A stretch of DNA of 64,000 nt from Thermoanaerobaculia bacterium (GTDB lineage: Bacteria > Acidobacteriota > Thermoanaerobaculia > Multivoradales > Multivoraceae), in assembly GCA_963664405.1 (NCBI GenBank), contig OY761158.1, positions 3,328,001 to 3,392,000 on the forward strand, in the 5' to 3' direction. The position numbers were made by a program, and so were the translations under genes. Positions 1 to 23,780 of this stretch are shown in pieces. The notes under the pieces are model-generated. The model did no database searches, was not told the DNA's origin, and saw only the letters and a list, made by a program, of their open reading frames with translations. Position 1 is the stretch's first letter, and every line of letters begins with the position of its first letter.

Positions 1-1617
1 GGCATTCTGAATCAGGCGCGCCGAGGTGCGCTGCAAACCCCGTTACCCGTCGGCCTACTCTACGACCCGACCGGTAACGTGGTGCTCGATCCCGACGGCC
101 AGGTCCAACGGAGCTTCGAGCACCTGTTCGAGACCTTCGAGCGTATGGGCTCGGCCTCGGCGACGGTCAAACACTTCCGCGAGCAAGGCTTGCGGTTTCC
201 GCGCCGGCCGCGCTTCGGCCCCCACAAGGGAGAGCTGTTGTGGGAGTCGTTGCGCCACTGGCGCGTCCTGAGGGTGCTGCACAATCCCCGCTACGCTGGC
301 GCTTTCTGTTTCGGTCGCACTCACACGCAAAGGCGCGTCAACGGCACCGTCGAGGTCAAGTCGCTTCCGCGGGAGGAGTGGACCGCGCTGTTGCTCGACG
401 CGCACCCCGGATACATTCCCTGGGAACAATTCGAAGAAAACCTGAGACGACTACGAGACAACGCCCAGGCCCACGGCCGAGACCGGCGCAAGAGCCCACC
501 GCGCGAGGGGCCAGCGCTGGTGCAGGGCTTGGTCCTCTGCGGCGTTTGTGGCCATCGGATGACGGTCCGCTATCACACGCGCAGGGGCACTCAGTGGCCC
601 GAGTACGTCTGCCAGCGCGAGGGCATCGACACCGCGACACCCAAGTGTCAGTCGATCCCGGGCAAGGGCATCGATCGGGCCATCGGAGAGCTGCTTGTGG
701 AGACGGTTACGCCTGTGACTCTGGAGGTTGCACTGAAAGTCCAGGTCGAGCTCGATGCACGGATCCACGAGGCCGATTCCCTGCGGCGCCAGCACGTACA
801 GCGAGCTCGACAGGAGGCTGACTTGGCTCGGCGTCGCTTCATGGAGGTCGATCCGGGGAACCGCCTCGTGGTGGATGTCCTCGAGGCCGAGTGGAACGAG
901 AGGCTGCGCGGGCTGCACGACGCACAGGAGGAGCTCGAGCAGCGCCGCCAGCAAGATCACCAACAGCTCGGCGACCAGCAACGAGAAGAGATCCTCGCCC
1001 TCGCCACCGACTTCCCGCGGTTGTGGAACGACCCGAAGACGCCTCAACGCGAGCGCAAGCGCATGGTGCGCTTGCTCATCGAGGACGTCACCTTGACGAA
1101 GGGCGACGAGATCGTTGTCGGTGTCCGCTTCCGAGGTGGCGCGACACGAAGTCTCAAACTGCCCATTCCGCCGACAGCATGGGAGTTACGCCAAACCTCG
1201 AAACAGGTCGTTGCCGAGATTGATACCCTGCTTGATGACTACACCGAGGCCGAGATTGCGAGCATCCTCAACGACAGAGGCCATCTCTCCGGAGAGGGCA
1301 AACGATTTCACGCCGGCATCGTCCGGCGACTGCGCCGTGACTACGACATCAAGAAGAGGTACGACCGACTGCGTGAGGGGGGAATGCTTACCCTCGAAGA
1401 GATGGCTGACCTACTGGGTGTCGCGACCCACACGGTGAAGACATGGCGCAACCACGGCCTGCTGCGTGCCCATGCCTACAACGACAAGAACGAGTGCCTC
1501 TACGAGCATCCCGGCGACGACCCGCCCGTCAAAATGCAGGGCCGAAAACTCTCGCAACGACGGCGCCGCCTCGACGTCGAACCGAACCCTACGGAGGAGG
1601 TGCAGTGTGAAGCGTAG
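1..1617 (+). CDS. Large serine recombinase (recombinase + zinc ribbon + coiled coil + C-terminal HTH), 5'-truncated by window edge
   Basis: Frame open from base 1 (GILNQARRGALQTPLPVGLLYD); LHNPRYAG recombinase motif, LVQGLVLCGVCGHRM...YVC zinc ribbon, RERKRMVRLLIEDV tail. Confidence 0.9.
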   Translation, partial: GILNQARRGALQTPLPVGLLYDPTGNVVLDPDGQVQRSFEHLFETFERMGSASATVKHFREQGLRFPRRPRFGPHKGELLWESLRHWRVLRVLHNPRYAGAFCFGRTHTQRRVNGTVEVKSLPREEWTALLLDAHPGYIPWEQFEENLRRLRDNAQAHGRDRRKSPPREGPALVQGLVLCGVCGHRMTVRYHTRRGTQWPEYVCQREGIDTATPKCQSIPGKGIDRAIGELLVETVTPVTLEVALKVQVELDARIHEADSLRRQHVQRARQEADLARRRFMEVDPGNRLVVDVLEAEWNERLRGLHDAQEELEQRRQQDHQQLGDQQREEILALATDFPRLWNDPKTPQRERKRMVRLLIEDVTLTKGDEIVVGVRFRGGATRSLKLPIPPTAWELRQTSKQVVAEIDTLLDDYTEAEIASILNDRGHLSGEGKRFHAGIVRRLRRDYDIKKRYDRLREGGMLTLEEMADLLGVATHTVKTWRNHGLLRAHAYNDKNECLYEHPGDDPPVKMQGRKLSQRRRRLDVEPNPTEEVQCEA

Positions 1618-2366
1618 CCCTTGGTGCGAGGTCGGTAGGGGCGTGTTCTGGAGTGCTTCAAACCGAGTTCCTGACCAAGATGGGCAAAGATCTAGGCGAC
1701 GTAGCAAGCTCCGTTGTCGGTCAAGATCCTCTGAATGGTAAACGCCTCGATCGGCGAAGAAAGCCATGACCCGCTGGAGAAAGGCTTGGGCGCTGGTCGA
1801 GCGCTCATTCTCGAGGATCTCCACGTAGGCCACCCGCGAGTTGTCATCGATGGCCACGTGGGCAAACTGCCAGCCGGCACCCTGACGGCGCCCCGATAGT
1901 CGCCCGTGATCCGGTGGCCCACGGAACGGATCTTGCCGAGCTTCTTGATGTCCAGGTGCACGAGCTCGCCCGCGTGCTGCTTCTCGTAGCGACGAACCGG
2001 TTCGGGCGGCGCCAGCTGAGGCAGTCGGCCCAAGTCCCAGCGACGCAACCAACGCGAAACGGTGGATCGGGGAATCCCTGTCTTCCAGGCGATCTCAGCC
2101 TGGCTCAGACGCTCCAGCCGAAGAGAGAGGATGCGTTCCCGATCCTTCTTACCCAGCCTCCGGGGACTCTGATGAGGGCAGGACGATCGATCCTGGAGAC
2201 CCTGGGAGCCCTCGGAGCGATAACGCCGCAACCACCGGTACCCCGATCGCGCGCTGAGGCCCTGGGCCTCAGCAGCCTTCCTGACCGTCCAACCTTCTTC
2301 CAACACTCTCTTCACCAGCAGGGCTCGACTCTTCGGGCAGCTTCGGGCATTCTTGTGCAGGTCCAT
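1618..2366 (-). pseudogene. IS481 transposase, frameshifted and truncated
   Basis: MDLHKNARSCPKSRALLVKRV, ELVHLDIKKLG, then HVAIDDNSRVAY, ILTDNGACY and KHSRTRPYRPRTKG spread over different frames. Confidence 0.88.
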
Positions 2367-2466
2367 CCCTTCACTCCTCTCCATGCGTTGTTTTCGTATC
2401 CAAAGCATGGCGGAAGTGGCTGGGATGGACCACCCCTCTTACTGAACAACCTTGTGAGCACTGACA
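1618..2466 (-). mobile_element. IS481-family element, 3'-truncated
   Basis: Left end TGTCAGTGCTCACAAGGTTG (minus, starts 2466); transposase remnants; no right end because the sequence switches to the recombinase gene at ~1618. Confidence 0.85.
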
Positions 2467-9354: not shown

Positions 9355-9582
9355 ATGAAAAAGATCACGATCCGTGAAATGCGCGCCTCCCTCGGGCGAC
9401 TCGACCAGATCTTGGACGAAGAGGGAGAGCTCCTTCTCACCAGACACGGCAAGACGGTCGCGCGCCTACTACCGGTGAGCCCAAAGCGGCGACTGCCCTC
9501 CCACCGGGATCTTCGTGAACGAATGAGCCGCGTCGGCTCGAGCGCTGAGATCGTGCGTGCCGATCGGGACGACCGAGGGTGA
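9355..9582 (+). CDS. Phd/YefM-family antitoxin
   Basis: MKKITIREMRASLGRL...LLLTRHGKTVARLLP; overlaps PIN toxin start. Confidence 0.85.
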   Translation: MKKITIREMRASLGRLDQILDEEGELLLTRHGKTVARLLPVSPKRRLPSHRDLRERMSRVGSSAEIVRADRDDRG

Positions 9583-10013
9583 CCGCCCCGTATCTGGACA
9601 CTTCGGCCTTAGCCAAGTGGTACATCAACGAGCCGCTCTCCGAACAGGTCGAGGACTACCTTTCCGCCCTGCCCTACGCCCTGATCAGTTCTCTCGTGAT
9701 CGTAGAGATGCGCAGCCTGCTACTGCGCAGAAGGCGCTCCGGCGAAATCGAGTCGGCTCTGGTTGAGCGTATTTGGACGACGTTTCGAGAAGATCAGGCG
9801 ACAGGCTCGCTGGTGGTCCTCGAGGTCAAGGACGAACATCTGAGATCCGCCGAGCGGCTCCTTGACCGAGTCGAAACACCGCTGCGAACGCTCGACGCCT
9901 TGCACCTGGCACTGGCGGAAAGCTCTAAGGCCATCGAGTGCGTAACAGCCGATCGGACCATGGCCGCGGGTGCCCGTGGGCTCGGGTTAAAAGTCAGAAC
10001 TTTCTTCGAGTAG
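9579..10013 (+). CDS. vapC: VapC-family PIN toxin
   Basis: YLDTSALAKWY, LRTLDALHLA, TAD PIN motifs. Confidence 0.9.
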   Translation: MTAPYLDTSALAKWYINEPLSEQVEDYLSALPYALISSLVIVEMRSLLLRRRRSGEIESALVERIWTTFREDQATGSLVVLEVKDEHLRSAERLLDRVETPLRTLDALHLALAESSKAIECVTADRTMAAGARGLGLKVRTFFE

Positions 10014-10020
10014 GGTCGCC

Positions 10021-12795
10021 TCACGGCGAAGCCGGTCGCAACAACGTCAAGAACAACGACTGCTTGGGGTCTTTCGCCAGAAAGCGATCCACCCAATACT
10101 GGCCGGAGGGCGAGGCGACAACCTCGCCGAAGAGGCGCGCGTCGTTGGTCAGGCCATCGGCGAAGCCGCTCTCATAGCCCGCGCGCAAGGCAAGCAGTGC
10201 GGTCCGAGCGGCGTGCCTCCGAGCAGCCGCCAGTTCATTGGCGTCATCCTCACTCGGAGCCGGCGAGGCCATGATCGCAGACACTTCGTCATCCTCGAAG
10301 AGAGCCTCGACATCCGTCGCCTGTTCAGCGGCCAGAGCGTCCCAATCCGCTCGCTCCAACTCTCGGCTACCCGTCATCACCTCGCGAGCGATCTCGAACG
10401 CCCGCACCAGCGCCGTCGAAGAAGGATGAAGCTCGTGTGCCAGGCCCAATCGCACCGCCTCGCCACCGTTCACCGATTCTCCGTTGACCGCCATCTCGGC
10501 TGCCTTGCGCGGTCCGATCAGGCGAGGCAGCCTCTGCATGCCGCCGTAACCGGGAATGATCCCGAGCTTGACCTCGGGCTGGCCCAGGATCGCGTTCTCG
10601 GTGACGATCCGATAGTGGGTGCTCATCGCCAACTCGTTGCCCCCGCCGAGAGCGAATCCGTCGACCAGAGATACGACAGGGATCGAGAGACTCTCGAGAC
10701 CGGTGAAGACGGCCATGTTGTCGGCGGCCAGCCGCTCGAGAGCTGACGCGCTCTTGGCAACGAAGACCTGGATGTCAGCGCCGGCAACGAACGATCTTCC
10801 GGCGCCGCGCAGAATCAGGGCTCCGACGGGCTCTCCTCGTAGAGTCCCAGTTGTCGCCAGCTCTTCGACCATGGTCGCGAGCTGCGCCACCATCTCCTCG
10901 CTCAAGGCGTTCAGAGCCGCGGGCCGGGTAAGAGTGACGATGCCGACCTCATCGATCACACGCAGGTCGAGAAGACGATTGTTGGCCGGTTCTGCGGCCT
11001 CGAGAGACTGGCCGAGATACTCGGACTCGTAGTCGGCGATCGTTCGTCCCGCCCGATCCGCCTGCACCAGTGCGACACCTTTGGGCTTGGTCATCGAGCC
11101 GTCGAGCATCTTCTGTTGGATGGTCGGGAGCTGCTCGAGGTCGACAATCTCGAGATCTTCCTGGCTCATCACGATGCGCTTCTCGGCGAGCAGACGCACG
11201 GTCTCTCGAGCCTGTGCCGAACAGTACATATGGGAGCCAAGGATCGAGACGTCGGAGGCACCGCGAGCGACGATGAAGCCTGAAGGCATCGCGTCGGTCT
11301 CGTCGTGGTCGCGGAGCAGGAAGGTACTGAAGTGAAGCGTGCTCGCGTCGGGTCGCTCGACGATGAAGTCGGGACTGACACGAGGGCCAAAGACTCCCCA
11401 GACGGCTCTGCCGACAGCTCGGGCATTGAGCATGAACTCGGAGTTGTAGACCGGATTGGGCTCGCCTTCCTCGGTCAAGGGGTCCGGCATGTCTTCGCCG
11501 AGCTCGAAAAGATCTCTGTCGATGAGGCTCGAGCGCGCAACGCCGAGTCGATCGAGTGCGGCAATCCCCTCTTCCTCTCGTGAGTGCGAAGCGATCACCG
11601 CGAGCTCAGAGCCACGCTCGAGTGCTGCTTTGGCGAACTCGAGGGCATAGGCGTCGGCTCCCCAGATCAGCCCTCTTCTCCCCGGAAGCAAACCGATCTC
11701 GGCGAAGATCTCCCTCGGCGAGCGATGACGAAAGATCACCTGTTTCTGGCGCATCCACACCCAGCGGGCGTCCATGACCAGGCGCCTTCGATCGTAGAAG
11801 AAGGTCTCTTTGTACTCGCCCTTGAGCCCCTGGCCGGTGGCACCGAAGAACGCGAGCGCACCTTTGGGAGCGAGAACCGAGGCAAGCAGAGGGAAGTTCT
11901 TGCCGCCGGTATGTTCGAACACCTTGTCCACCGCCTGGCCATCATTAGCAGCCAGTACCGCCCGGCGGAAGGGCTCGGTCCTTGCGGCCCAGGCGTCGTA
12001 GTCCTCATCCTCGGACAGAACACCAAAGACCTCAGGTGGAAGCTCGCGACGATTGACAAAGGTGTCGGCGACGCCGCGCTCGATGAGGGACTCGGCCAAT
12101 TCTCTGTTCGAGCCCACCAGGACGACCCGTGCCCCCAATGCCTTCGCGATCTGGGCCCCCGCGAAGCTCGTCCCCTTGCCTCCCCCCATCACCAGAACCG
12201 AGTCTCCGGGACCAACCGCGAGCCGTTCGACCACGGCACGGTAAGCGGTGCCGTAAGTCAGAAGCATGGCCGCCAGCCGCTCCGGGCTGTGGCCACTCAA
12301 CTCGGGTGGCACGGCCACCGCCCGCTCTTCATCGACCACCGCAAATTGCGCATTGAAGCCGTCATGGCTCTCATAACCGCGGATGCTCTGCCCGGTCCAC
12401 GAGTCGAGAATCACGGCTTGCCCGACTCGGACACTGGTGACCGCCGCGCCGGCGTCGACCACAATACCGAGGGCATCGCTGCCGGGGATATGAAGGGTGG
12501 CGCTGTCGCCTCTAGCGAAGACCGGAACCGGAAGTCCGAGCGCGGCGAAATTTGTATTGAAATTGGGACCGGTGGCGAGGATCGAGACCAACACTCGACC
12601 GGCGTCGGCCGCCCCCAGCCGAGGCACGGGCACTTCTTCACAGCGGAGCACCTCTGCCGGGGCGCCGTAGTCGTCTCGATGCAAGGTCAGGGCGAGCATC
12701 GTCTCCGGTATCGAGCTCGCCAGGCTCGGGCAGACTCCAAGCGGCCAGCGTGAAGCTTCCGGTGGCGCACTTTCAGGCTGAGATATCTCGCTCAT
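10021..12795 (-). CDS. Fusion of Ccr/PCS-like enoyl-CoA (carboxylase/)reductase and C-terminal enoyl-CoA hydratase
   Basis: MDR motifs NFN, HIPGSDA, GYE, LTYGTAYR, VFEHTG, DARWVWMRQKQ, GSH; crotonase FVAGADI, GGGNEL, QPEVKLG. Confidence 0.8.
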   Translation of the reverse strand: MSEISQPESAPPEASRWPLGVCPSLASSIPETMLALTLHRDDYGAPAEVLRCEEVPVPRLGAADAGRVLVSILATGPNFNTNFAALGLPVPVFARGDSATLHIPGSDALGIVVDAGAAVTSVRVGQAVILDSWTGQSIRGYESHDGFNAQFAVVDEERAVAVPPELSGHSPERLAAMLLTYGTAYRAVVERLAVGPGDSVLVMGGGKGTSFAGAQIAKALGARVVLVGSNRELAESLIERGVADTFVNRRELPPEVFGVLSEDEDYDAWAARTEPFRRAVLAANDGQAVDKVFEHTGGKNFPLLASVLAPKGALAFFGATGQGLKGEYKETFFYDRRRLVMDARWVWMRQKQVIFRHRSPREIFAEIGLLPGRRGLIWGADAYALEFAKAALERGSELAVIASHSREEEGIAALDRLGVARSSLIDRDLFELGEDMPDPLTEEGEPNPVYNSEFMLNARAVGRAVWGVFGPRVSPDFIVERPDASTLHFSTFLLRDHDETDAMPSGFIVARGASDVSILGSHMYCSAQARETVRLLAEKRIVMSQEDLEIVDLEQLPTIQQKMLDGSMTKPKGVALVQADRAGRTIADYESEYLGQSLEAAEPANNRLLDLRVIDEVGIVTLTRPAALNALSEEMVAQLATMVEELATTGTLRGEPVGALILRGAGRSFVAGADIQVFVAKSASALERLAADNMAVFTGLESLSIPVVSLVDGFALGGGNELAMSTHYRIVTENAILGQPEVKLGIIPGYGGMQRLPRLIGPRKAAEMAVNGESVNGGEAVRLGLAHELHPSSTALVRAFEIAREVMTGSRELERADWDALAAEQATDVEALFEDDEVSAIMASPAPSEDDANELAAARRHAARTALLALRAGYESGFADGLTNDARLFGEVVASPSGQYWVDRFLAKDPKQSLFLTLLRPASP

Positions 12796-12962
12796 GCGGG
12801 GCATCGTAGCGCAGAGAGGCAGCGGAATCTGTTTGCTAACGTCCAGCGCTCGAGCCTGAAAAGCGGCGCAATACGCAGGCGGAGGAGGACTACAGGCGCT
12901 GGTTTCACGGGCGGCTTCGGCTAGCGGAAGCAGCGCTGGCCGATCGAGACCTGAGTCCGAAC

Positions 12963-13027
12963 GCGCCGTCCTCGGCGCCAAACAGCAATCTGATTTCAGA
13001 AGTGCTATTCAGCACTTCTGAAGTCAG
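12963..13027. repeat. REP-like unit (GCGCCGTCCTCGGCGCC + hairpin), possible terminator
   Basis: 17-mer recurs at ~24219, ~37207, ~38974; followed by CTGATTTCAGAAGTGC-tattca-GCACTTCTGAAGTCAG hairpin overlapping the ACAD stop. Confidence 0.65.
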
Positions 13028-14148
13028 CAGAGCAGAAGGTCGGCTAGATGCTTGCGGTGGTGCATCGCGTCGCCGTACTGGCTCTGACACCAGAGTGCCC
13101 GGCGCAAAAAGAGTTGCGCGTCGCACTCATAGGTGAAGCCGAAGGCGCCGTGGAACTGGACAGCCCGATCGCCGGCAAAGGCGAAGGACTCGCTGGCCTC
13201 GGCCTTGAGCATCCTCAACGCCGTCTCGGCCTCAGCTTCTCCGAATACGGTGGCGGCGTGGTACAGATGCGATCGCGAGCGCTCGAGGCCGATGAGAATG
13301 TCGACCGTAGGGTGCTTCAGGGCCTGAAAGCTGCCGATCTTACGGTCGAACTGAGTGCGAGACTTGAGGTAGTCGACAACGATTTCGAGAGTGCCGGCGA
13401 TGCCGCCGCAGGATTCGGCTGAGACCAGCAGCAAAGCCATATCGCCGATCGCGTGTAGAGCCGCGAGCGCGACCTCGCCGCGAATCAAAGAACCGTCGTC
13501 GACTTCGACGCCGTCGAGAGTCAGGCGATAGCTGCGCCTGGTTTCGTCGATAACCGTTTCTCGCTCGAGCGCGGCGTCAGGAATGCGACTCCGCTCCAGC
13601 GCGATCAAAGCGGGCTCGTTGTCGAGAACGGTGGTGACCAGAAAGAGCTCCGCCTCTCCGGCATCGAGCACGAAGCTCTTGGCACCGTGGAGAGTCACCT
13701 TCGACCCCGAGACCTCGGCACGGCTGACACTGCTCTCGAGCGCCCACCCGCCCTCGAGATCAACCGCCGCTAGAGTCGCGATTGCGCCCTCGGCAAGACG
13801 AGGAAGCCACTCTTGTCGTAGTGCCTCGGCGCCGTTTCCGACACCCGCATTCAACAGACCCTGAATCACCAGCTGAGTGCTGAGGAATGGCGAAGCGAAG
13901 AGACAGCGCCCCATCGGCTCCACCAGGCTGACCAGCTCGACCGCTCCCAGCCCGGTGCCGCCGAGCTCCTCGGGAACCGCGATGCCTAGCCACCCGGCGT
14001 CGGTCATCTCGGCCCACAGATCTCGGTCGAAGCCGGTCTCGGAGGTCAGCTGCTCACGAGTAGATTCCACCGACCACTTGTCGCGAAAGAATCGGGTGGC
14101 GATGTCAGCGAGCATCGCCTGCTCGGGTGAGAAGAGGATCCCACTCAT
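13024..14148 (-). CDS. Acyl-CoA dehydrogenase, beta-type subunit
   Basis: RTQFDRKIGSFQALKH, AVQFHGAFGFTYE; ATGA overlap with upstream ACAD. Confidence 0.9.
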   Translation of the reverse strand: MSGILFSPEQAMLADIATRFFRDKWSVESTREQLTSETGFDRDLWAEMTDAGWLGIAVPEELGGTGLGAVELVSLVEPMGRCLFASPFLSTQLVIQGLLNAGVGNGAEALRQEWLPRLAEGAIATLAAVDLEGGWALESSVSRAEVSGSKVTLHGAKSFVLDAGEAELFLVTTVLDNEPALIALERSRIPDAALERETVIDETRRSYRLTLDGVEVDDGSLIRGEVALAALHAIGDMALLLVSAESCGGIAGTLEIVVDYLKSRTQFDRKIGSFQALKHPTVDILIGLERSRSHLYHAATVFGEAEAETALRMLKAEASESFAFAGDRAVQFHGAFGFTYECDAQLFLRRALWCQSQYGDAMHHRKHLADLLLC

Positions 14149-15353
14149 GACTTGTCCAGCCCGAGCACCCGCTCGCCGATGATATTCGCTTGGATCTGGC
14201 TGGTGCCGCCGCCGATCGTGCCGGAGAACGCGTTGAAGTAGGAGCGCTGCCACTTGCCGCCATCCGCTGCCTGCGGATCGCCCACCCAGAGCGCACCGCT
14301 CGACCCCTGGAGCGCGATGGCGAGCTGGAAGAGGCGGCGGCGATGCTCGGTGCCGCGGAGCTTCCCGGAGAGCGGAATCGCGTGCGGTCGCTCGCCCACC
14401 AATGCCGGGATCTTGGCACGCTCGCGGCACAGGCGGTCGCCTTCTTCCTCGATGAGGAATCGGACGAGCTGGTCTCGGATCAGCGGATCTTCGATCGCCG
14501 GGCGACCGTCTCGCTTGGCCCGTCGCGCCAGCTCGACTACATCCCCAACCCGAACGAACATCGACGACAGGCCACCGGCCTGGCCCCCAGTCGCGCCACG
14601 CTCGAACTGAAGCGTGGTCATCGCGATCTGCCAGCCCTGCCCTTCCTCGCCCATCAGGCAATCCGCCGGAATGCGGGCATCGTTGAAGAAGGTCTGGACG
14701 AAGCCGTACTCACCGGTCAGCTTACGAATCGGGCTGGTCTCGACCCCTTCCGCCGTCATCGGCGCCAGGAAGTAGCTCAAGCCGGCGTATTTGTTCGACG
14801 CGGCCGGATCGGTGCGCGCCAGCAGAATCATGTATTTCGCGTACTTTCCCAGGCTCGTCCACATCTTGCTGCCGTTGATCAGGTACTCGTCGCCGTCGCG
14901 CACCGCTCGAGTCTGCACATTGCCCAGGTCCGAGCCGTGATCCGGCTCGGAGAAGCCCTGACACCAGATGTCCTCGGCGCTGAGGATGCGCCGAATGTAG
15001 CGCTGCTTTTCCTCCTCGCTTCCCATGTGGAGGATCAGCGGGCCCGCCCAGTTCAAACCGATGGTGTTGGGTACGAAAGGCACGCCGTGATGAGCCATCT
15101 CGGCATTCACGATGTTCTGGAACGCCTGCGCCTTGCCACCCCCACCGTAGGCCTCCGGCCACGCCATCCCCAGGTACCCGGCTTCGTAGACCTTGCGCTG
15201 CCAATCGCGTAGGAACTCGAACTGCTGGTCGGTACCGACCTCCATGAACGACTCCGGAAGCAGGAAAGAGGGCTTGGGGGGCCGGTTCTCCTCGAGCCAG
15301 GCGACGACCTCGGCGCGAAAGTCTTCTAGTTGGGCGGGCTCAGGCTCTGGCAC
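14145..15353 (-). CDS. Acyl-CoA dehydrogenase, alpha-type subunit
   Basis: WCQGFSEPDHGSDL, NGSKMWTS, TIGGGTSQIQANIIGERVLGL. Confidence 0.92.
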   Translation of the reverse strand: MPEPEPAQLEDFRAEVVAWLEENRPPKPSFLLPESFMEVGTDQQFEFLRDWQRKVYEAGYLGMAWPEAYGGGGKAQAFQNIVNAEMAHHGVPFVPNTIGLNWAGPLILHMGSEEEKQRYIRRILSAEDIWCQGFSEPDHGSDLGNVQTRAVRDGDEYLINGSKMWTSLGKYAKYMILLARTDPAASNKYAGLSYFLAPMTAEGVETSPIRKLTGEYGFVQTFFNDARIPADCLMGEEGQGWQIAMTTLQFERGATGGQAGGLSSMFVRVGDVVELARRAKRDGRPAIEDPLIRDQLVRFLIEEEGDRLCRERAKIPALVGERPHAIPLSGKLRGTEHRRRLFQLAIALQGSSGALWVGDPQAADGGKWQRSYFNAFSGTIGGGTSQIQANIIGERVLGLDKS

Positions 15354-15449
15354 GAATCAATCCTCCGGTTTGAGTCTCGACCAAGTCGAGCGTGAAAGGT
15401 ATCATCGCGCTCTGCTCGCCGTCGGCGAGGCGCCGCCACATTTCTTCCT

Positions 15450-17081
15450 ATGCCAATCCTACGCTCCAACATCGACACCCGCTCCGAGTCCTTTCAGAAG
15501 AACCGTTCCGACGTGCTCGAGCAGCTCGCCGAGATCGATGTCCTCCTCGAGGAGGTTTCGCAGGGCGGCGGCGAGGAGGCGATGGCGAGGCTGCGCTCGC
15601 GCGACAAGATGCCGGTTCGTCGCCGGGTTTCGCTCGCGCTCGACCGCGACACACCCTTTCTCGAGATCAGTCCGCTCGCCGCCTGGAACACCAATTACAC
15701 GGTGGGCTCGGGGTTCCTGGTCGGCATCGGCCAGATCTCGGGGGTCGAATGCGTCATTCTCGCTCACGACCCCTCGGTACGAGCCGGCGCATTCAACGAG
15801 TTCAATGCCAAGAAGCTGATGCGCGGCCTGCAGATCGCCCGCGAGAACCGTCTTCCCTATGTCCAATTCGTCGAGTCGGCCGGCGCCGACCTGCGAGGAT
15901 CGCGGGGCGACGACCCGGAAGCCGCTCTGATGCGGGAAACCGGCCACTTTGCCGAGTCCGGCCGTCTCTTCTACGAGATCTCCGAGTTGTCGCAGATGCG
16001 CATTCCAACCATCTCTCTGGTTTTCGGCGCGTCGACCGCCGGCGGCGCCTACCAGCCCGGGATGAGCGACTACAACATCTTCATCAAGAAGCAATCGATG
16101 GTGTTTCTGGGCGGCCCACCGCTGGTGAAGATGGCGACCGGCGAGGACTCCGACGCGGAAAGTCTCGGCGGTGCCGACATGCATTGCAGGGTCTCAGGCC
16201 TCGGCGACTATCTCGCCGAAGACGAGCTCGACGGAATCCGCATCTGCCGCGAGCTGATGACCCATCTCAACTGGCGCAAGGAGGGCCCAGGTCCGACGCT
16301 ACCGCCCGACGAGCCGATCTACGATCCGGAGGATCTCTTGGGCCTGGTGTCGAGGGACCTGCGCTCACCGCTCGATATCCGAGAGGTCATCGCCCGCGTC
16401 GTCGACGGGTCGCGCTTCGAAGAGTTCAAGCCCGTCTACGGGACGACCCTGATTTGCGGGTGGGCTTCGATCCATGGCTTTCCGGTGGGCATCCTGGGCA
16501 ACAACGGAGCGCTGCTCTCCGAGTCGGCCGAGAAGGCCACCCAGTTCATCCAGCTCTGTAACCAGATCGATGTCCCGCTATTGTTCCTCCACAACATCAC
16601 CGGCTACATCGTCGGCAAGGACTTCGAAGAGGGCGGCATCACCAAGAACGGCTCGAAGATGATCAACGCCGTTACCAACTCGACGGTGCCTCATATCTCG
16701 GTCATCGTCGGCAACTCTTACGGCGCCGGAAACTACGGCATGAGTGGCCGTGCCTACGGCACTCGCTTCGCCTTTATCTGGCCGACCGCCAAGATCGCGG
16801 TCATGGGCCCCAAGCAGATGGCTGGGGTGATGACGATCGTGGGTCGCAACGCGGCGAAGCGGCGGGGTCTCGATTTCGACGAAGAAGCCAACGCAAAAAG
16901 GGCGGAGACAGTGATCCACTGGGGGGAGAAGCGCTCGCTTGCGCTGCACGCGACCTCTCGCGTTTCGGATGACGGTCTCATCGACCCACGCGACACGCGC
17001 ACGACTTTGGGCATCGCCCTTTCGGCCTGCCACAGCCGCGAGGTCAAAGGCACCAAGGGCTACGCGGTATTCAGGATGTAA
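15450..17081 (+). CDS. Acyl-CoA carboxylase carboxyltransferase subunit (AtuC/MccB-like)
   Basis: VESAGADL, STAGGAYQPGMSD, FLGGPPLVKMATGE, SYGAGNYGMSGR. Confidence 0.9.
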   Translation: MPILRSNIDTRSESFQKNRSDVLEQLAEIDVLLEEVSQGGGEEAMARLRSRDKMPVRRRVSLALDRDTPFLEISPLAAWNTNYTVGSGFLVGIGQISGVECVILAHDPSVRAGAFNEFNAKKLMRGLQIARENRLPYVQFVESAGADLRGSRGDDPEAALMRETGHFAESGRLFYEISELSQMRIPTISLVFGASTAGGAYQPGMSDYNIFIKKQSMVFLGGPPLVKMATGEDSDAESLGGADMHCRVSGLGDYLAEDELDGIRICRELMTHLNWRKEGPGPTLPPDEPIYDPEDLLGLVSRDLRSPLDIREVIARVVDGSRFEEFKPVYGTTLICGWASIHGFPVGILGNNGALLSESAEKATQFIQLCNQIDVPLLFLHNITGYIVGKDFEEGGITKNGSKMINAVTNSTVPHISVIVGNSYGAGNYGMSGRAYGTRFAFIWPTAKIAVMGPKQMAGVMTIVGRNAAKRRGLDFDEEANAKRAETVIHWGEKRSLALHATSRVSDDGLIDPRDTRTTLGIALSACHSREVKGTKGYAVFRM

Positions 17082-17083
17082 CC

Positions 17084-19075
17084 TTGGGTAAGTCGATCAC
17101 ACGCCTACTGGTCGCCAACCGAGGCGAGATTGCCCGCCGCATCATGCGCTCGGCGCACGGCATGGGCATCGGCAGTGTCGCGATCTACGCCGACTCGGAC
17201 GCGGATGCGCCCTTCGTCAAAGAGGCGGATCAGGCCATCGCCCTCGGCGGGCGCACCTCGGCCGAGAGCTACCTCGATACCGAAAAGGTCCTCGCCGCCG
17301 CGGCGCGCACAGGCGCCGACGCGGTGCATCCGGGATACGGCTTCCTGGCCGAGAACGCGAGCTTCGCTGCCGCCGTCCGCGATGCGGGACTGATCTGGGT
17401 GGGCCCGAGCCCGGAAGCGATTACCGCAATGGGCGACAAGCTCAGCGCCAAGCGGTTGATGCAAGAGGCCAAGGTGCCGACCCTGCCCGCGGCCGAGCTC
17501 GACGCCGATGCCGACGTTGCCGCGGCTGCAAAAGAGATCGGCTTCCCACTGCTCGTCAAGGCGGCGGCCGGCGGTGGTGGCAAGGGCATGAGAGTGGTCG
17601 ACGACCCCGCCGACCTCGAAGACGCGGTGGCCGGCGCTCGTCGAGAGGCCCTCGCCTCCTTCGGCGACGACACTGTCTTCCTCGAGCGCTGGTTGGCGGT
17701 CAGCCGGCACGTCGAGATCCAGTTGCTAGGCGACGAGCACGGCAACTTGGTTCACTGTTTCGAGCGCGAGTGCTCGATTCAGCGACGCCATCAAAAGGTC
17801 ATCGAAGAGTCGCCATCGCCGGCGGTCACTGCAGAGCTACGACAGCGGATGGGAGACGCAGCGGTCGCCGCGGGTCAGGCCATCGGTTACTCGTCAGCCG
17901 GCACGGTCGAATTCTTGCTCGACGGAAGTGACTTCTGGTTTCTCGAGGTCAACACTCGACTCCAGGTCGAGCATCCGGTGACCGAGATGATCACCGGCCT
18001 CGATCTCGTACGCGAGCAGTTGCGAGTGGCCCAGGGCGAAGAGCTGGGCTTCAATCAAGACGACATCACCATGAGTGGGCACTCGATCGAGGCTCGTCTC
18101 TATGCCGAAGATCCGGCCAACGACTTTCTTCCCACCACCGGTTGTGTTGCCGCCTGGCAGCCTTCGACCTCGGTAGAGGCTCGCTTCGACTCGGCGATCG
18201 AGACCGGCAGCGAAGTGGGGATCGAGTTCGACCCGATGCTGGCAAAGATCATCACTCATGCGCCGACTCGCCAGGAAGCCGCGGGCCGCCTGGCGCGAGC
18301 GCTCGAGACCACCCGCGTGCAAGGTCTGGTGACCAACCGAGACTTTCTCGTCGCGGTCCTTCGCTCGCCGGAGTTTCTCGACGGCGACACCACTACCGAC
18401 TTCATCGAACGAGTCAGCCTGGCACCAAAGCGTCAGTCATCGCGCCAAGAGCTCGAAGAGGCCGCGATCCTGGCGGCGATGGCGGCCCAGGTCGATCGGC
18501 GGCGAGCCGCCAAGTCGCTCGCGACCATCGCTACCGGGTGGCGCAATACGGTAATGCCGCGCGAAGAAGTGAGCTACCGCTCCGTTTCTGACGACGGTGA
18601 AAGGGACCTGCTGGTGGAGTACCGCCGGCGACGGGACGACACCTTGAGTGTCAAGGTCGGCGAAGAAGACCGCGTCGTTTCAGTGCTCTCTCGCCAAGGA
18701 GACGAGATCGCGCTCGTCATCGACGGCCGGCGAGTTGCCGCCACAGTCACGGCTAGGGAGAATCGACGCTACGTGCACGGACCGGCTGGTGATGTGGAAC
18801 TGCTCGAGCTACTTCGCTTCCCCGAACCGGAAATCGAAGGCATCTCGGGCGGCCTGGTCGCCCCCATGCCGGGCAAAGTCATCGCGGTGCACGTAGCCGC
18901 AGGCGACACCGTCGAGGTCGGCCAGCTGCTGCTCGTGCTCGAAGCGATGAAAATGGAGCACCGCATCACCGCACCGACGGCCGGGACGATCTCCGAGCTG
19001 CGCGTTGCGGAGGGAGACCAGGTGGACAACGGTGAGCTGGTAGTGGTTCTGAACGAGGAGGAGTCCGCCGAATAA
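17084..19075 (+). CDS. Biotin carboxylase/biotin carrier subunit (AtuF/MccA-like)
   Basis: LLVANRGEIA, HPGYGFLAEN, ERECSIQRRHQK, EAMKM biotinylation site. Confidence 0.93.
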   Translation: MGKSITRLLVANRGEIARRIMRSAHGMGIGSVAIYADSDADAPFVKEADQAIALGGRTSAESYLDTEKVLAAAARTGADAVHPGYGFLAENASFAAAVRDAGLIWVGPSPEAITAMGDKLSAKRLMQEAKVPTLPAAELDADADVAAAAKEIGFPLLVKAAAGGGGKGMRVVDDPADLEDAVAGARREALASFGDDTVFLERWLAVSRHVEIQLLGDEHGNLVHCFERECSIQRRHQKVIEESPSPAVTAELRQRMGDAAVAAGQAIGYSSAGTVEFLLDGSDFWFLEVNTRLQVEHPVTEMITGLDLVREQLRVAQGEELGFNQDDITMSGHSIEARLYAEDPANDFLPTTGCVAAWQPSTSVEARFDSAIETGSEVGIEFDPMLAKIITHAPTRQEAAGRLARALETTRVQGLVTNRDFLVAVLRSPEFLDGDTTTDFIERVSLAPKRQSSRQELEEAAILAAMAAQVDRRRAAKSLATIATGWRNTVMPREEVSYRSVSDDGERDLLVEYRRRRDDTLSVKVGEEDRVVSVLSRQGDEIALVIDGRRVAATVTARENRRYVHGPAGDVELLELLRFPEPEIEGISGGLVAPMPGKVIAVHVAAGDTVEVGQLLLVLEAMKMEHRITAPTAGTISELRVAEGDQVDNGELVVVLNEEESAE

Positions 19076-19875
19076 TGTCGACTGCCGGACAAGAACACAC
19101 GCTCTACGAAGTCCGCGACTCGGCTGCTTGGATCACGCTCAACCGGCCGGAGGTGCGCAACGCCCTCTCCGGGACCTTGATCACCGAGGTCTACGACCAC
19201 CTGGCGAACGCCCAGGCCGACGACAACGTGCGCTGCATTGTGCTGACAGGGGCCGGCAAAGGCTTCTGTTCCGGCGCCGATCTCAAGAATCGGGCGGTGC
19301 CGGAGGGAAAAGTCGTGGCTTACCCCGACTTGCTCACCGCGATCTGGGAGTGCGAAAAGCCGGTGGTTGCCGCCATCAATGGCCCGGCCTTTGCCGGCGG
19401 TCTCGGCCTCGTCGCAGCTTCCGACATCGTGATTACGGCCGAAGAAGCGATTTTCAGCTTCAGCGAAGTTCGTATCGGCGTCATCCCCGCCATCATCGCG
19501 GTGGTATGCCTGCGAAAGCTCGGCCCTCACCACGGCATGCGGCTCTTCGTCACCGGCGATCGCTTCACCGGCGCTCAGGCGGTGGACTACGGCTTGGCTC
19601 ATCGAGCGGTACCTCGGGCAGAGCTCTACGAGGCCGTCGAAGCTGAGCTCGAGATGATCCGGCTGGGCGGACCGACCGCCGTCGTCGAGTGTAAGAAACT
19701 GGTGCGAGCCCTACCCGATCTCTCGATGAAGGAGGGCTTCGAGCTCACCCAGGGCTGGAGCCGCCGCATGTTTCAAGCCCCGGAAGCTGCCGAAGGCATG
19801 GCGGCCTTTCGCGAAAAGCGCAAGGCCGCCTGGTGCGCGCCGGACGAGACTGGCGACGGCGAGGCTCTGGAGTAG
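19075..19875 (+). CDS. Enoyl-CoA hydratase (AtuE/methylglutaconyl-CoA hydratase-like)
   Basis: LNRPEVRNAL, FCSGADLK, GGLGLVAASD, FSEVRIG. Confidence 0.88.
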   Translation: MSTAGQEHTLYEVRDSAAWITLNRPEVRNALSGTLITEVYDHLANAQADDNVRCIVLTGAGKGFCSGADLKNRAVPEGKVVAYPDLLTAIWECEKPVVAAINGPAFAGGLGLVAASDIVITAEEAIFSFSEVRIGVIPAIIAVVCLRKLGPHHGMRLFVTGDRFTGAQAVDYGLAHRAVPRAELYEAVEAELEMIRLGGPTAVVECKKLVRALPDLSMKEGFELTQGWSRRMFQAPEAAEGMAAFREKRKAAWCAPDETGDGEALE

Positions 19876-21775: not shown

Positions 21776-23780
21776 GGGTCGGCGCGGAAATAACTTCACA
21801 TTATCGCCGGAGCGTGTGAGGCCGAGGCGCCACAGGGCGGTCGCTGCATTGGAGGTGGTGGTGAGCTGAGCCCAGGCTGTGGGGCAAGCTCTTCCTGCTC
21901 GGTTCGCGGTCTCGGCGAGAGGGTGTAGTTCCACTTTCCTAGGAAGTCGCTCCTGGCCACCGCGAGCTGCAGCATTTCCTTGTCCGATACCCTGACTCCT
22001 TTCTGGTATTGGCGTTGATCACGGCACGGCTCGACGCGCAGTCCGGTGGATGTCGTCGTGTTGCGGACGAGGTTGACGAGGATCTCGAAACTCTCGAGAG
22101 GAACTCCGGCCCAGTTCTTGCTGATCTCGCTGAACATCCTGTGCTCGATGGGATTCCATTTACTGGTGCCAGTTGGATAGTGGGCGACGGTGATGATGAG
22201 GCCGCACTTGTCTACGAGCTTCTCCTGGAGGTACTTCTTCCAGGCTCGAAGCCGTGCGCCGTTGCTTGCGCCGCTGTCGGCAAGAATGAGGAGACGCTGA
22301 GACGCCGGATAGTGAGATCGACCGTATTTGAGCCACCAGGTCGCGATGCTGTTGACAGCGAACTCCGGCGTGTCCGACGACTGTCCGAGGACGAGAACGC
22401 CGAAGTTCCTCTGAAGATCGTAGATCCCATAGGGGGAGGCGATGGCGAGAGCTTCGGACCGGAAGTCGTGATCCTTGACCCGCTTGGCCTCGCGGCACCA
22501 TGTCTGTCCCTGGTTCTTGAACCGACCGATCAGCTCCTTCTTCTTCGTATCGACGCTGATGATCGGGTCGCCAGCGCTTGTGAAATCCTCGCGCAGTCGC
22601 TTGATGGCCTTGAACTGTGCATCACGATCTGGGGAGTTCCCCGAAGACAGACATTTCCTATTGCTCTTGAGGGAATAGTTCAGGTCTGCGAGCAATCGAC
22701 GCACCACCGTAGCCGATACGATGATGTCAAGGCGTTCGGCAAGGCATTGGGCCACCTTTGCAGCGGTCTCGTGCGTCCATCTTTTTGATGACATGGGATC
22801 ACCAGCTATATCGGCCTCGAGTATGGAATGGATTCCATCGACTATCTCGGGCGTTTTTTTTCCACTCGTTGGTTGCCACCGCCTGCTCTTCGAACTCTTC
22901 CGCGCTCCACGGAGCCGCCGAAGAGCTCGCGACGTCCTTTTGCGACTGTATGAGGGTCCAGGTCCAGAAGATCGGCGATCTTCCGGTCGCCGCCATGCCC
23001 GAGCTTGGTCGCTTCCAGGCCAGCGAAGAGCCGCCGCTGGCGTTCGTCTAGCAGGCTGAAGAATAAAACGATGGCAGCCCTGAGCTCCTCGGGGAGCACT
23101 TCTGGAACGAGGCTGGCAGCTACATCCTGGAGAGCCTGCCGTTCGTTGCGCATCAGCTTCTGCTGACGACGGCGCCCTGTTTCCGAGCACAAGTATACGA
23201 ACCTCTTCCCAACTCTGGATCGTACGATTCTCTTGCTACGAACGAGGTGCAACATCGCGTGCTTGACCTCGACCTGCAGCAGGAGCTCGAGTTCAGAAGC
23301 CGTATAGCCGGCAGCGGACCGGTCCACGGCAGCCACCGCAGTTTCGAGGAGGCTGCCATGCCGACTGAACCTCGCCGAACCGCACGACCACAAACCCAGA
23401 TCGTCGAAATCGGGAATCTCGTTCAAGGTATAGAACCGCCCTCGATCCGAGTAGCTGGCCAAATAGCCCAATCGAGACAGCGAACGGTAGACCGTCATGG
23501 TGGCTCGGGTTCCCATGGCGTCCTTGAGCTCATCCATGGTGGCCATCTGTTCGCTCATCAAGAGCTCGCGCACTGTTGCATCACGATCTTCGGCTCGTAC
23601 CATTTGGTATAGTTCCCCTTCCAAAAGAGGTGACAGGGAAAACTATACCAAATGCGGGCAGGGCTATGCTAGCTCTAAACCTTGCAAACAAGGCGCGTAC
23701 CGGAGGATTATGCGGTGGCTGAAGAAGGGGGCAGTGGTATGGTCACCCCAGATACTGGAAACTTATTTCCGCGCCGACCC
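21776..23780 (-). mobile_element. ISAzo13-family insertion sequence
   Basis: Perfect 18-bp terminal inverted repeats GGGTCGGCGCGGAAATAA; flanks TAA and TTA; frameshifted transposase inside. Confidence 0.92.
21796..23624 (-). CDS. ISAzo13 transposase, orfA (22842-23624) + orfB joined by -1 frameshift
   Basis: LDERQRRLFAGLE in orfA; A8 run at ~22854-22861; ISVDTKKKELIG, HDF, ADSGASNG, SKWNPIEHRMFS in orfB. Confidence 0.88.

Follow-up and report, generated by a model that had tools for sequence, protein, structure and literature searches.

A candidate ligase-less relative of propionyl-CoA synthase with reversed domain order, encoded by a Thermoanaerobaculia bacterium

Introduction

Few known enzymes fix CO2 as efficiently as the enoyl-CoA carboxylases/reductases (ECRs). 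The subject of this work is a protein in which a reductase of the ECR type is fused to a crotonase. It is encoded in a stretch of 64,000 nucleotides from a Thermoanaerobaculia bacterium (GenBank assembly GCA_963664405.1, contig OY761158.1, positions 3,328,001 to 3,392,000), and this whole stretch is referred to here as the window. The closest described systems are crotonyl-CoA carboxylase/reductase (CCR; family model TIGR01751, structures 4GI2 and, from Kitasatospora setae, 6OWE) and propionyl-CoA synthase (PCS), the latter from Erythrobacter sp. NAP1 (structure 6EQO). A CCR chain is about 400–450 residues long and contains one Rossmann domain. PCS is the textbook example of a self-made reaction chamber, which sequesters toxic acrylyl-CoA, and its domains follow the order ligase, dehydratase, reductase.

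The CO2 pocket of the K. setae CCR (KsCcr) is formed by N81, F170, E171 and H365, as set out by Stoffel et al. (PMC6628652). According to the same authors, the F170Y variant keeps full carboxylation, while the second-shell substitutions T82D and S119A slow the enzyme more than 50-fold. PCS converts 3-hydroxypropionate to propionyl-CoA; in two further papers its carboxylation is described as only promiscuous, and as having needed engineering to raise it (PMC10176493, PMC10266731).

The gene described here lies on the minus strand of the window, at 10021..12795, and specifies a reductase (residues 1–600) followed by a crotonase (residues 601–924). Its architecture, its homology, its conserved catalytic residues and the distribution of its family are reported below as observed. 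We propose that the protein is a bifunctional enzyme of the ECR superfamily, a PCS relative that has no ligase and carries its domains in the reverse order. Its likeliest reaction would be the conversion of 3-hydroxypropionyl-CoA through acrylyl-CoA to propionyl-CoA, and we give this proposal as a whole a probability of about one half.

Relationship to CCR and PCS

The best NCBIfam match of the whole protein is TIGR01751, the CCR equivalog model. The score is 178.6 bits, against a curated cut-off of 378.55, and the protein is therefore not a CCR equivalog. Nor is it a PCS, because it has no ligase and its domain order is reversed. No AMP-binding domain, as found in AMP-forming acyl-CoA ligases, is matched anywhere in the 924 residues with Pfam or NCBIfam, whereas PCS has its ligase in front of the dehydratase and reductase; in P0206, a PCS-type protein of 1,833 residues, the AMP-binding domain is at 356–636.

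The best PDB sequence match of the full protein is nevertheless PCS 6EQO (E 1.5e-45), with the crotonase (617–908) matching the PCS dehydratase (906–1202) and the reductase (24–321) matching PCS 1243–1557. When the reductase part is searched alone, CCR 4gi2 ranks first (E 6.8e-32, residues 16–357) and PCS fifth.

Like PCS, the window protein has an ECR-type reductase enlarged by the insertion of a second Rossmann-like domain, its crotonase extends at the C-terminus into a helical region, and the motifs NFN, GYE and G(S/T)H occur in both. The two differ in several respects: their reductases are only about 30% identical, the residue that follows the pocket Asn is Asp in PCS but Thr in the family, and PCS has GSG where the family has GSD. 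The family also has an extra MRQK-FRH element, and is without a loop of about 18 residues. The features shared with CCR are the CCR-type N-terminal segment, the medium-chain dehydrogenase/reductase (MDR) fold, the four CO2-pocket positions and the second-shell Thr and Ser. Unlike a CCR, the protein has a reductase of about 600 residues with a second α/β domain, and is fused to a crotonase.

A tree of ECR proteins was calculated from 25 sequences with a quick tree search, omitting P0219 because it is truncated at the N-terminus. Twelve of them, which passed or nearly passed the TIGR01751 cut-off, were taken as CCR equivalogs, and these fall on one side of a branch with an SH-aLRT support of 99. 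The fusion family lies on the opposite side, together with the double-Rossmann enzymes, on a stem of length 1.84; its three-way split with the PCS clade and a MaoC-type clade is not resolved.

Other proteins also have an enlarged reductase followed by a hydratase, which is a crotonase in P0194 (939 residues) and P0219 (854 residues) and a MaoC domain in P0149 (711 residues). Their identity to the window protein is just 30–35%. P0194 is nested inside the PCS clade and P0149 is in a third clade, so that fusions of these types look independent. Two further architectures were observed among the relatives: P0167, of 2,640 residues, consists of an HpcH/HpaI lyase domain, a MaoC domain and a double-Rossmann reductase, and P0180, of 591 residues, is a bona fide CCR carrying C-terminal CBS domains.

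The second Rossmann-like domain

AlphaFold produced a model of the 924-residue protein with a pLDDT of 81.2 and a pTM of 0.79, in which the low-confidence parts are the active-site loops 134–146, 713–725 and 734–746. The top Foldseek match of this model is PCS 6eqo (E 1.9e-31, 650 columns). In the VIA re-alignment, 541 residues align with 6eqo_B (Z 30.6, rmsd 3.1 Å), pairing 11–595 of the model with PCS 1226–1841, while just 373–389 residues align with the CCRs over the same span. These alignment lengths indicate that the 150–190 or so extra residues, at about 363–515, form a domain that is present in PCS and absent from CCRs.

The sequence comparisons give the same picture. In a MAFFT alignment the segment at about 363–515 is filled in all double-Rossmann proteins and is a gap in all 12 CCR equivalogs, and phmmer matches residues 35–495 to P0206 1223–1691 in a single stretch. 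The β-α-β pattern of the first Rossmann domain recurs at residues 374–520 of the model. The second degenerate Rossmann segment suggested by the preliminary description, which was made from the DNA sequence and its translation, is thus real as a second α/β domain, and the comparison made there with PCS was apt.

The two copies are conserved to different degrees. In an alignment of 30 family members, the first has an invariant GGGKGTS at 204–210, and the second retains only W378-G379-x-D381. At the end of the first copy stands DARWVWMRQKQVIFRH, paired by phmmer with CCR DARYVWMRQKRIQGSH, the element of the MRQKRIQGSH type. H357, at the end of the first copy, is not conserved, and G520-S521-H522, after the second copy, is invariant. 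This MRQK-FRH-type ending of the first Rossmann copy is peculiar to the fusion family.

There are two matches of TIGR01751 to the protein, at model positions 4–335 and 188–397 (the latter with E 1.9e-8), with 142 and 34.5 bits in a search of the genome. An internal duplication was sought directly by pairwise local alignment of residues 186–360 with 361–545 (z 1.6) and by hhalign comparison of the two half-alignments (P 0.19), and was significant in neither. The segment is best described as a second Rossmann-like domain that probably arose by duplication, as indicated by the fold and by the double match to the model.

Domain organisation and catalytic residues

The minus-strand open reading frame (ORF) extends over 10021–12981 of the window, and the ATG at 12795 is M63 of that frame. 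Translation from this ATG gives 924 residues, with the stop codon at 10021–10023. W17, L19, P23 and P30 are nearly invariant among homologues, meaning that conservation starts before the next methionine (M33), and the alignment with CCR 4gi2 begins at residue 16. The 924-residue form is therefore the better start. With more than 120 full-length homologues, this is a genuine gene and not a chance frame.

Pfam identifies ADH_N (66–163), ADH_zinc_N (212–328) and ECH_1 (617–822, E 8.8e-40), each above its cut-off. Together with the translation, this bears out the earlier description of an MDR or ECR-type reductase of about 600 residues followed by a crotonase in one chain, in the order reductase, dehydratase, and with no ligase.

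All of the domains are on the minus strand. The CCR-type N-terminal segment and the GroES-like catalytic domain (residues 16–185, 12241..12750) are defined by the 4gi2 alignment and by ADH_N, and contain N80-T81 (in NFNT), S106-D107 (in GSD) and Y141-E142 (in GYE), all of them invariant. They are followed by the first Rossmann domain (186–357, 11725..12240), from ADH_zinc_N and the 4gi2 alignment, which runs through 357, and then by the second, degenerate Rossmann-like α/β domain (363–515, 11251..11709), which includes GRRGLIWGAD and is defined by the model, by the PCS alignments and by the gap in CCRs. The C-terminal part of the reductase catalytic domain (516–600, 10996..11250) has the invariant G520-S521-H522, and was placed by the MAFFT alignment to the CCR GSH motif and by the second TIGR01751 match. 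The crotonase core (601–810, 10366..10995), from ECH_1 and invariant motifs, carries the catalytic residues E721 (in GGGNE) and E741 (in QPE). It is followed by a C-terminal helical extension (811–924, 10024..10365), which aligns with PCS at about 1100–1202 and is helical in the model.

The six motifs quoted in the preliminary description are all found in the translation, at 78–81 (NFNT), 139–144 (RGYESH), 372–381 (GRRGLIWGAD), 518–524 (ILGSHMY), 716–722 (LGGGNEL) and 738–746 (GQPEVKLGI), and they are invariant in the family: N78/F79/N80, G140/Y141/E142, G520/S521/H522, G717–E721 and Q739/P740/E741 are the same in 30 of the 30 aligned members. The match to ECH_1 (PF00378) is 137.1 bits, against a cut-off of 27. 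The domain is thus a crotonase, and as had been noted it keeps both catalytic Glu motifs, with E721 and E741 invariant.

The equivalents of the KsCcr pocket residues are N80, Y141, E142 and H522, each invariant (30/30), with T81 and S106 in the second shell. This correspondence is read from sequence alignments, and in these the NFN, GYE and GSH motifs do align, as had been claimed, with the Asn, Tyr, Glu and His of the CCR CO2 pocket. The corresponding motifs in PCS-type sequences are NFN-D, G-S-G, GYE and G(T/A)H. The four pocket residues cannot therefore tell a carboxylase from a reductase, since PCS, which is mainly a reductase, has them too. There is one local difference near the pocket: the loop of about 18 residues directly before GYE, present both in CCRs and in PCS-type proteins, is missing from the family (window 12364–12381, in the region of residues 134–146).

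Distribution of the family

A word-indexed protein search gave 422 matches. The best 120 of these are 822–982 residues long and 63–98% identical to the window protein; all are recorded with ECH Pfam domains, and most with ADH_zinc_N and ADH_N as well. The only database names among these 120 are 'enoyl-CoA hydratase(-related)', 'zinc-binding dehydrogenase' and 'hypothetical'. An exhaustive search of representative sequences gave 3,213 matches at E ≤ 1e-3, and 44 at ≤ 1e-30. The identity profile shows a tight family at 60% or above, and then a gap down to about 35%. Below the gap are the PCS-type protein P0206, the reductase-MaoC fusions (P0149 and P0167), stand-alone double-Rossmann reductases of 591–608 residues, P0194 and P0219. 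Within the tight family the identity is 63–77% across phyla.

At least 134 stretches in species-representative genomes encode a relative, and 80 of these were used for all the locus counts given here. Almost all of the 80 loci are from metagenome-assembled genomes (MAGs), and they belong to Acidobacteriota, Thermodesulfobacteriota, Deferrimicrobiota-type 'Deltaproteobacteria', Actinomycetota, Gammaproteobacteria and Chloroflexota. A family tree was calculated from 70 of the loci and the window, after 10 partial or interrupted sequences had been dropped. It has three groups, and the group containing the window mixes four phyla at short distances. Of 24 other genomes in the family to which the window genome belongs, 5 were found to have the gene, as against none of 16 genomes from other families of the order. 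The fusion is an accessory, horizontally mobile gene, and its family is distinct, widespread, patchily distributed and uncharacterised. No description of this fusion family was found in the literature searched, as far as its available text extends.

A malonyl-CoA-reductase-like module in related loci

In 25 of the 80 loci, the fusion gene is followed directly downstream, on the same strand, by a module of about 1,630 residues. Among the 22 of these with long enough contigs, the module is in frame with the fusion in 19, where the resulting proteins have about 2,500 residues (P0123, for instance), and in the other three (L018, L065 and L068) it is encoded by a gene of its own next to the fusion. 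In L051, L060 and L070 the frame ends early. An example of the megaenzyme is the single ORF at L063:1184–8929, which has counterparts in L034, L035, L040, L050, L057 and others, all Deferrimicrobiota-type MAGs. Its parts are the reductase-crotonase, a region of about 500 residues, and a module of four short-chain dehydrogenase/reductase (SDR) units.

The best PDB sequence matches of the module are the bifunctional malonyl-CoA reductases (MCRs) 8hjw and 8hi4. Residues 1086–1303 match MCR 5–213, and residues 533–745 match MCR 571–779, so that the two halves are in swapped order. A model was made for the last 1,159 residues, and in a Foldseek search with this model the top 25 ranks are all malonyl-CoA reductases (8hjw_A with E 1.4e-27 over 1,332 columns), while single SDRs are at about 1e-9. 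The N-terminal 500 or so residues of the module (L063:3950–5449) have no Pfam or PDB sequence match. This region could be a structural spacer, or a domain that activates or transfers CoA.

In 7 of the 80 loci (L065:5213–7264 on the minus strand, L018, L020, L061, L068, L080 and L009) a gene upstream of the fusion, in divergent orientation, encodes an ADP-forming acyl-CoA ligase. Its nearest NCBIfam models are those for acetate, 4-hydroxybutyrate and 3-hydroxypropionate CoA ligases, and it scores below the cut-offs of all of them. Four of five megaenzyme genomes searched (L057, L050, L034 and L035) have strong HpaB_N-family matches of 250–310 bits, two of them in open frames of 1,022–1,070 residues; there are none in the genome of the window. 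4-Hydroxybutyryl-CoA dehydratase belongs to this family. Of the 146 nearest-neighbour ORFs, 80 were scanned with Pfam, and these gave no family-wide partner beyond the MCR-like module. In two loci of Thermodesulfobacteriota type (L031:12750–14303, and L058 at about 12809–14371) a carboxyltransferase is found directly downstream of the fusion, of the type of acyl-CoA carboxylase beta or methylmalonyl-CoA decarboxylase alpha subunits.

Genomic context in the Thermoanaerobaculia bacterium

The genome of the window has a single copy of the fusion and about 30 crotonase paralogues. It has no canonical CCR, none of its 10 TIGR01751 matches being above the cut-off, and a search for the ADP-forming ligase gave no match at E ≤ 1e-10. 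There are three full-length matches and one weak partial match to B12-dependent mutases, and eight HpcH/CitE-like matches. In an NCBIfam scan of the three mutases and seven HpcH/CitE-type ORFs, the mutases pass only the generic N-terminal model TIGR00641 and no full-length mutase equivalog, and none of the 10 ORFs passes a malyl-CoA-lyase model or any other model specific to the ethylmalonyl-CoA pathway.

Upstream of the fusion and on the same strand is a heteromeric acyl-CoA dehydrogenase pair resembling PimC/PimD (13024–15353). Divergent from this pair are genes for a carboxyltransferase, a biotin carboxylase/biotin carboxyl carrier protein with a BT domain, and an enoyl-CoA hydratase (15450–19875). 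The region 13024–19875 is a catabolic cluster of the methylcrotonyl- or geranyl-CoA-carboxylase type. Its genes are hardly ever found beside the fusion elsewhere: the counts in the 80 loci are 0 for the small and 1 for the large dehydrogenase subunit, 2 for the carboxyltransferase and 0 for the biotin carboxylase. The neighbours in the window thus do not travel with the fusion, and their adjacency is weak evidence of function.

Between the fusion and the dehydrogenase genes there is a hairpin with a perfect 12-bp stem at 12995–13022 (TTCAGAAGTGCT, loop GAAT, AGCACTTCTGAA), with no T-run. It directly follows the stop codon of the dehydrogenase small subunit and is 200 nt before the start of the fusion. 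One 10-base half of it recurs at 23095. On the other side of the fusion is a convergent PIN-domain gene (9579–10013) that ends 8 nt from the fusion stop and is beside the fusion in 0 of the 80 loci, and at the start of the window (79–2408) there are a gene of the serine-recombinase type and an IS481 transposase represented by its N-terminal part. Mobile or toxin-antitoxin-type genes such as these are consistent with the patchy occurrence of the fusion.

Proposed function

In the mechanism that we propose, the C-terminal crotonase would dehydrate a short 3-hydroxyacyl-CoA to the 2-enoyl-CoA, and the N-terminal PCS-type reductase would transfer a hydride from NADPH to the β-carbon of the latter. 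The enolate would then be protonated to give the saturated acyl-CoA, or to some degree captured by CO2. As in PCS, the fusion would prevent the loss of an enoyl intermediate that is reactive and thermodynamically disfavoured. A C3 substrate is indicated most strongly by the MCR-like module. Malonyl-CoA reductase makes 3-hydroxypropionate, and the fused or adjacent position of the module (a Rosetta-stone argument), with an ADP-forming ligase nearby, suggests 3-hydroxypropionate chemistry. In such a C3 route an MCR would supply 3-hydroxypropionate, a ligase would convert it to 3-hydroxypropionyl-CoA, and the fusion would take this on to propionyl-CoA or methylmalonyl-CoA. The direction of flux, the C3 substrate, the use of NADPH and the extent of carboxylation relative to reduction are inferred. 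The preliminary description had the protein dehydrate a 3-hydroxyacyl-CoA and reductively carboxylate it in one chain. The dehydration and reduction are well supported by homology; carboxylation is not established, the pocket residues being found in PCS also.

Several observations weigh against this proposal. The branch leading to the family is long (1.84) and does not appear to arise within the PCS clade, and all of its members are known from their sequences alone. The second shell of the CO2 pocket is closer to that of true CCRs than the PCS one is, which favours a carboxylase. As for the module, its sequence matches to MCR are just about 10 bits above those to generic SDRs, and the model of its last 1,159 residues, with four SDR-like units, is of mediocre quality (pLDDT 63). 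All the module-bearing loci are in one Deferrimicrobiota-type clade of the family tree, so that the link between module and fusion amounts to a single evolutionary association, and ORF clustering of the 80 loci gave no other partner common across the family. The module was not found in the window genome, where only generic SDR matches of about 30% identity are present, nor in five other genomes carrying the fusion, and the C3 inference may therefore not transfer to the organism of the window.

It is possible, although on balance doubtful, that the protein is instead a true reductive carboxylase, which would combine acrylyl- or crotonyl-CoA generated in situ with CO2 to give methylmalonyl- or ethylmalonyl-CoA without ATP. 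The four pocket residues are all present and invariant; Tyr in place of Phe would be tolerated, to judge from the fully carboxylating KsCcr F170Y (PMC6628652), and the equivalents of Thr82 and Ser119 are CCR-like (NFNT and GSD, as opposed to NFND and GSG in PCS). The lack of a canonical CCR in the genome is also in favour. Against this, PCS-type enzymes with the same four residues mainly reduce (PMC10176493, PMC10266731), the TIGR01751 score is far below the cut-off, the protein is outside the CCR side of the tree, and the pre-GYE loop of CCRs and PCS is missing. No clear partner from the ethylmalonyl-CoA pathway was seen among the 10 candidates scanned in its own genome, a scan that is itself uninformative.

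It is unlikely that the substrate has four or more carbons, for example (S)-3-hydroxybutyryl-CoA, with the protein making a saturated acyl-CoA in reverse β-oxidation, storage-polymer or lipid metabolism and having no link to 3-hydroxypropionate. The crotonase does have scores against the short-chain crotonases 3pea, 6lvp and 5z7r (124–130 bits) that are about as good as its score against the 3-hydroxypropionyl-CoA dehydratase 5zai (110.6 bits), the genome has its many crotonase paralogues but neither the MCR-like module nor the ADP-forming ligase, and acyl-CoA dehydrogenase and carboxylase genes adjoin the fusion. However, these adjoining genes are rarely beside it elsewhere and are separated from it by the hairpin, and the only conserved partner anywhere, the MCR-like module, indicates C3 chemistry. 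It is very improbable that the substrates of the two domains are unrelated, or that the crotonase is an isomerase or hydrolase, with no two-step channel. Enzymes of the crotonase fold are catalytically diverse, but nothing specific favours this explanation, and both hydratase glutamates are invariant. Moreover, independent reductase-hydratase fusions recur, with crotonase (P0194, P0219) and with MaoC (P0149, P0167), which argues for a coupled hydratase-reductase pair.

A more far-reaching version of the carboxylase explanation is quite unlikely. The fusion would in this case be a natural enzyme that carboxylates acrylyl-CoA without ATP and has a dehydratase of its own, so that it converts 3-hydroxypropionyl-CoA through acrylyl-CoA to methylmalonyl-CoA. 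In the Deferrimicrobiota-type megaenzyme of about 2,500 residues, malonyl-CoA would be carried nearly to (methyl)malonyl- or propionyl-CoA, as part of an unrecognised bacterial route, of the hydroxypropionate type, for carbon fixation or propionate metabolism. The HpaB_N genes in four of the five megaenzyme genomes are in line with such a route. In the organism of the window, which is without the module partners, the same chemistry would be a stand-alone carboxylating salvage step. Acrylyl-CoA carboxylation is a step of the synthetic HOPAC cycle, 'new-to-nature' in the words of its authors (PMC10266731).

Significance

The fusion family can be viewed as a naturally minimised and rearranged version of the dehydratase-reductase pair of PCS. 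Because it keeps every known pocket residue and has a CCR-like second shell, it offers a natural test of what decides between reduction and carboxylation. Its members are at present named generically, as 'enoyl-CoA hydratase-related' or 'zinc-binding dehydrogenase'. The megafusion with an MCR-like module provides a testable lead to hydroxypropionate-type metabolism outside the Chloroflexota and archaea.

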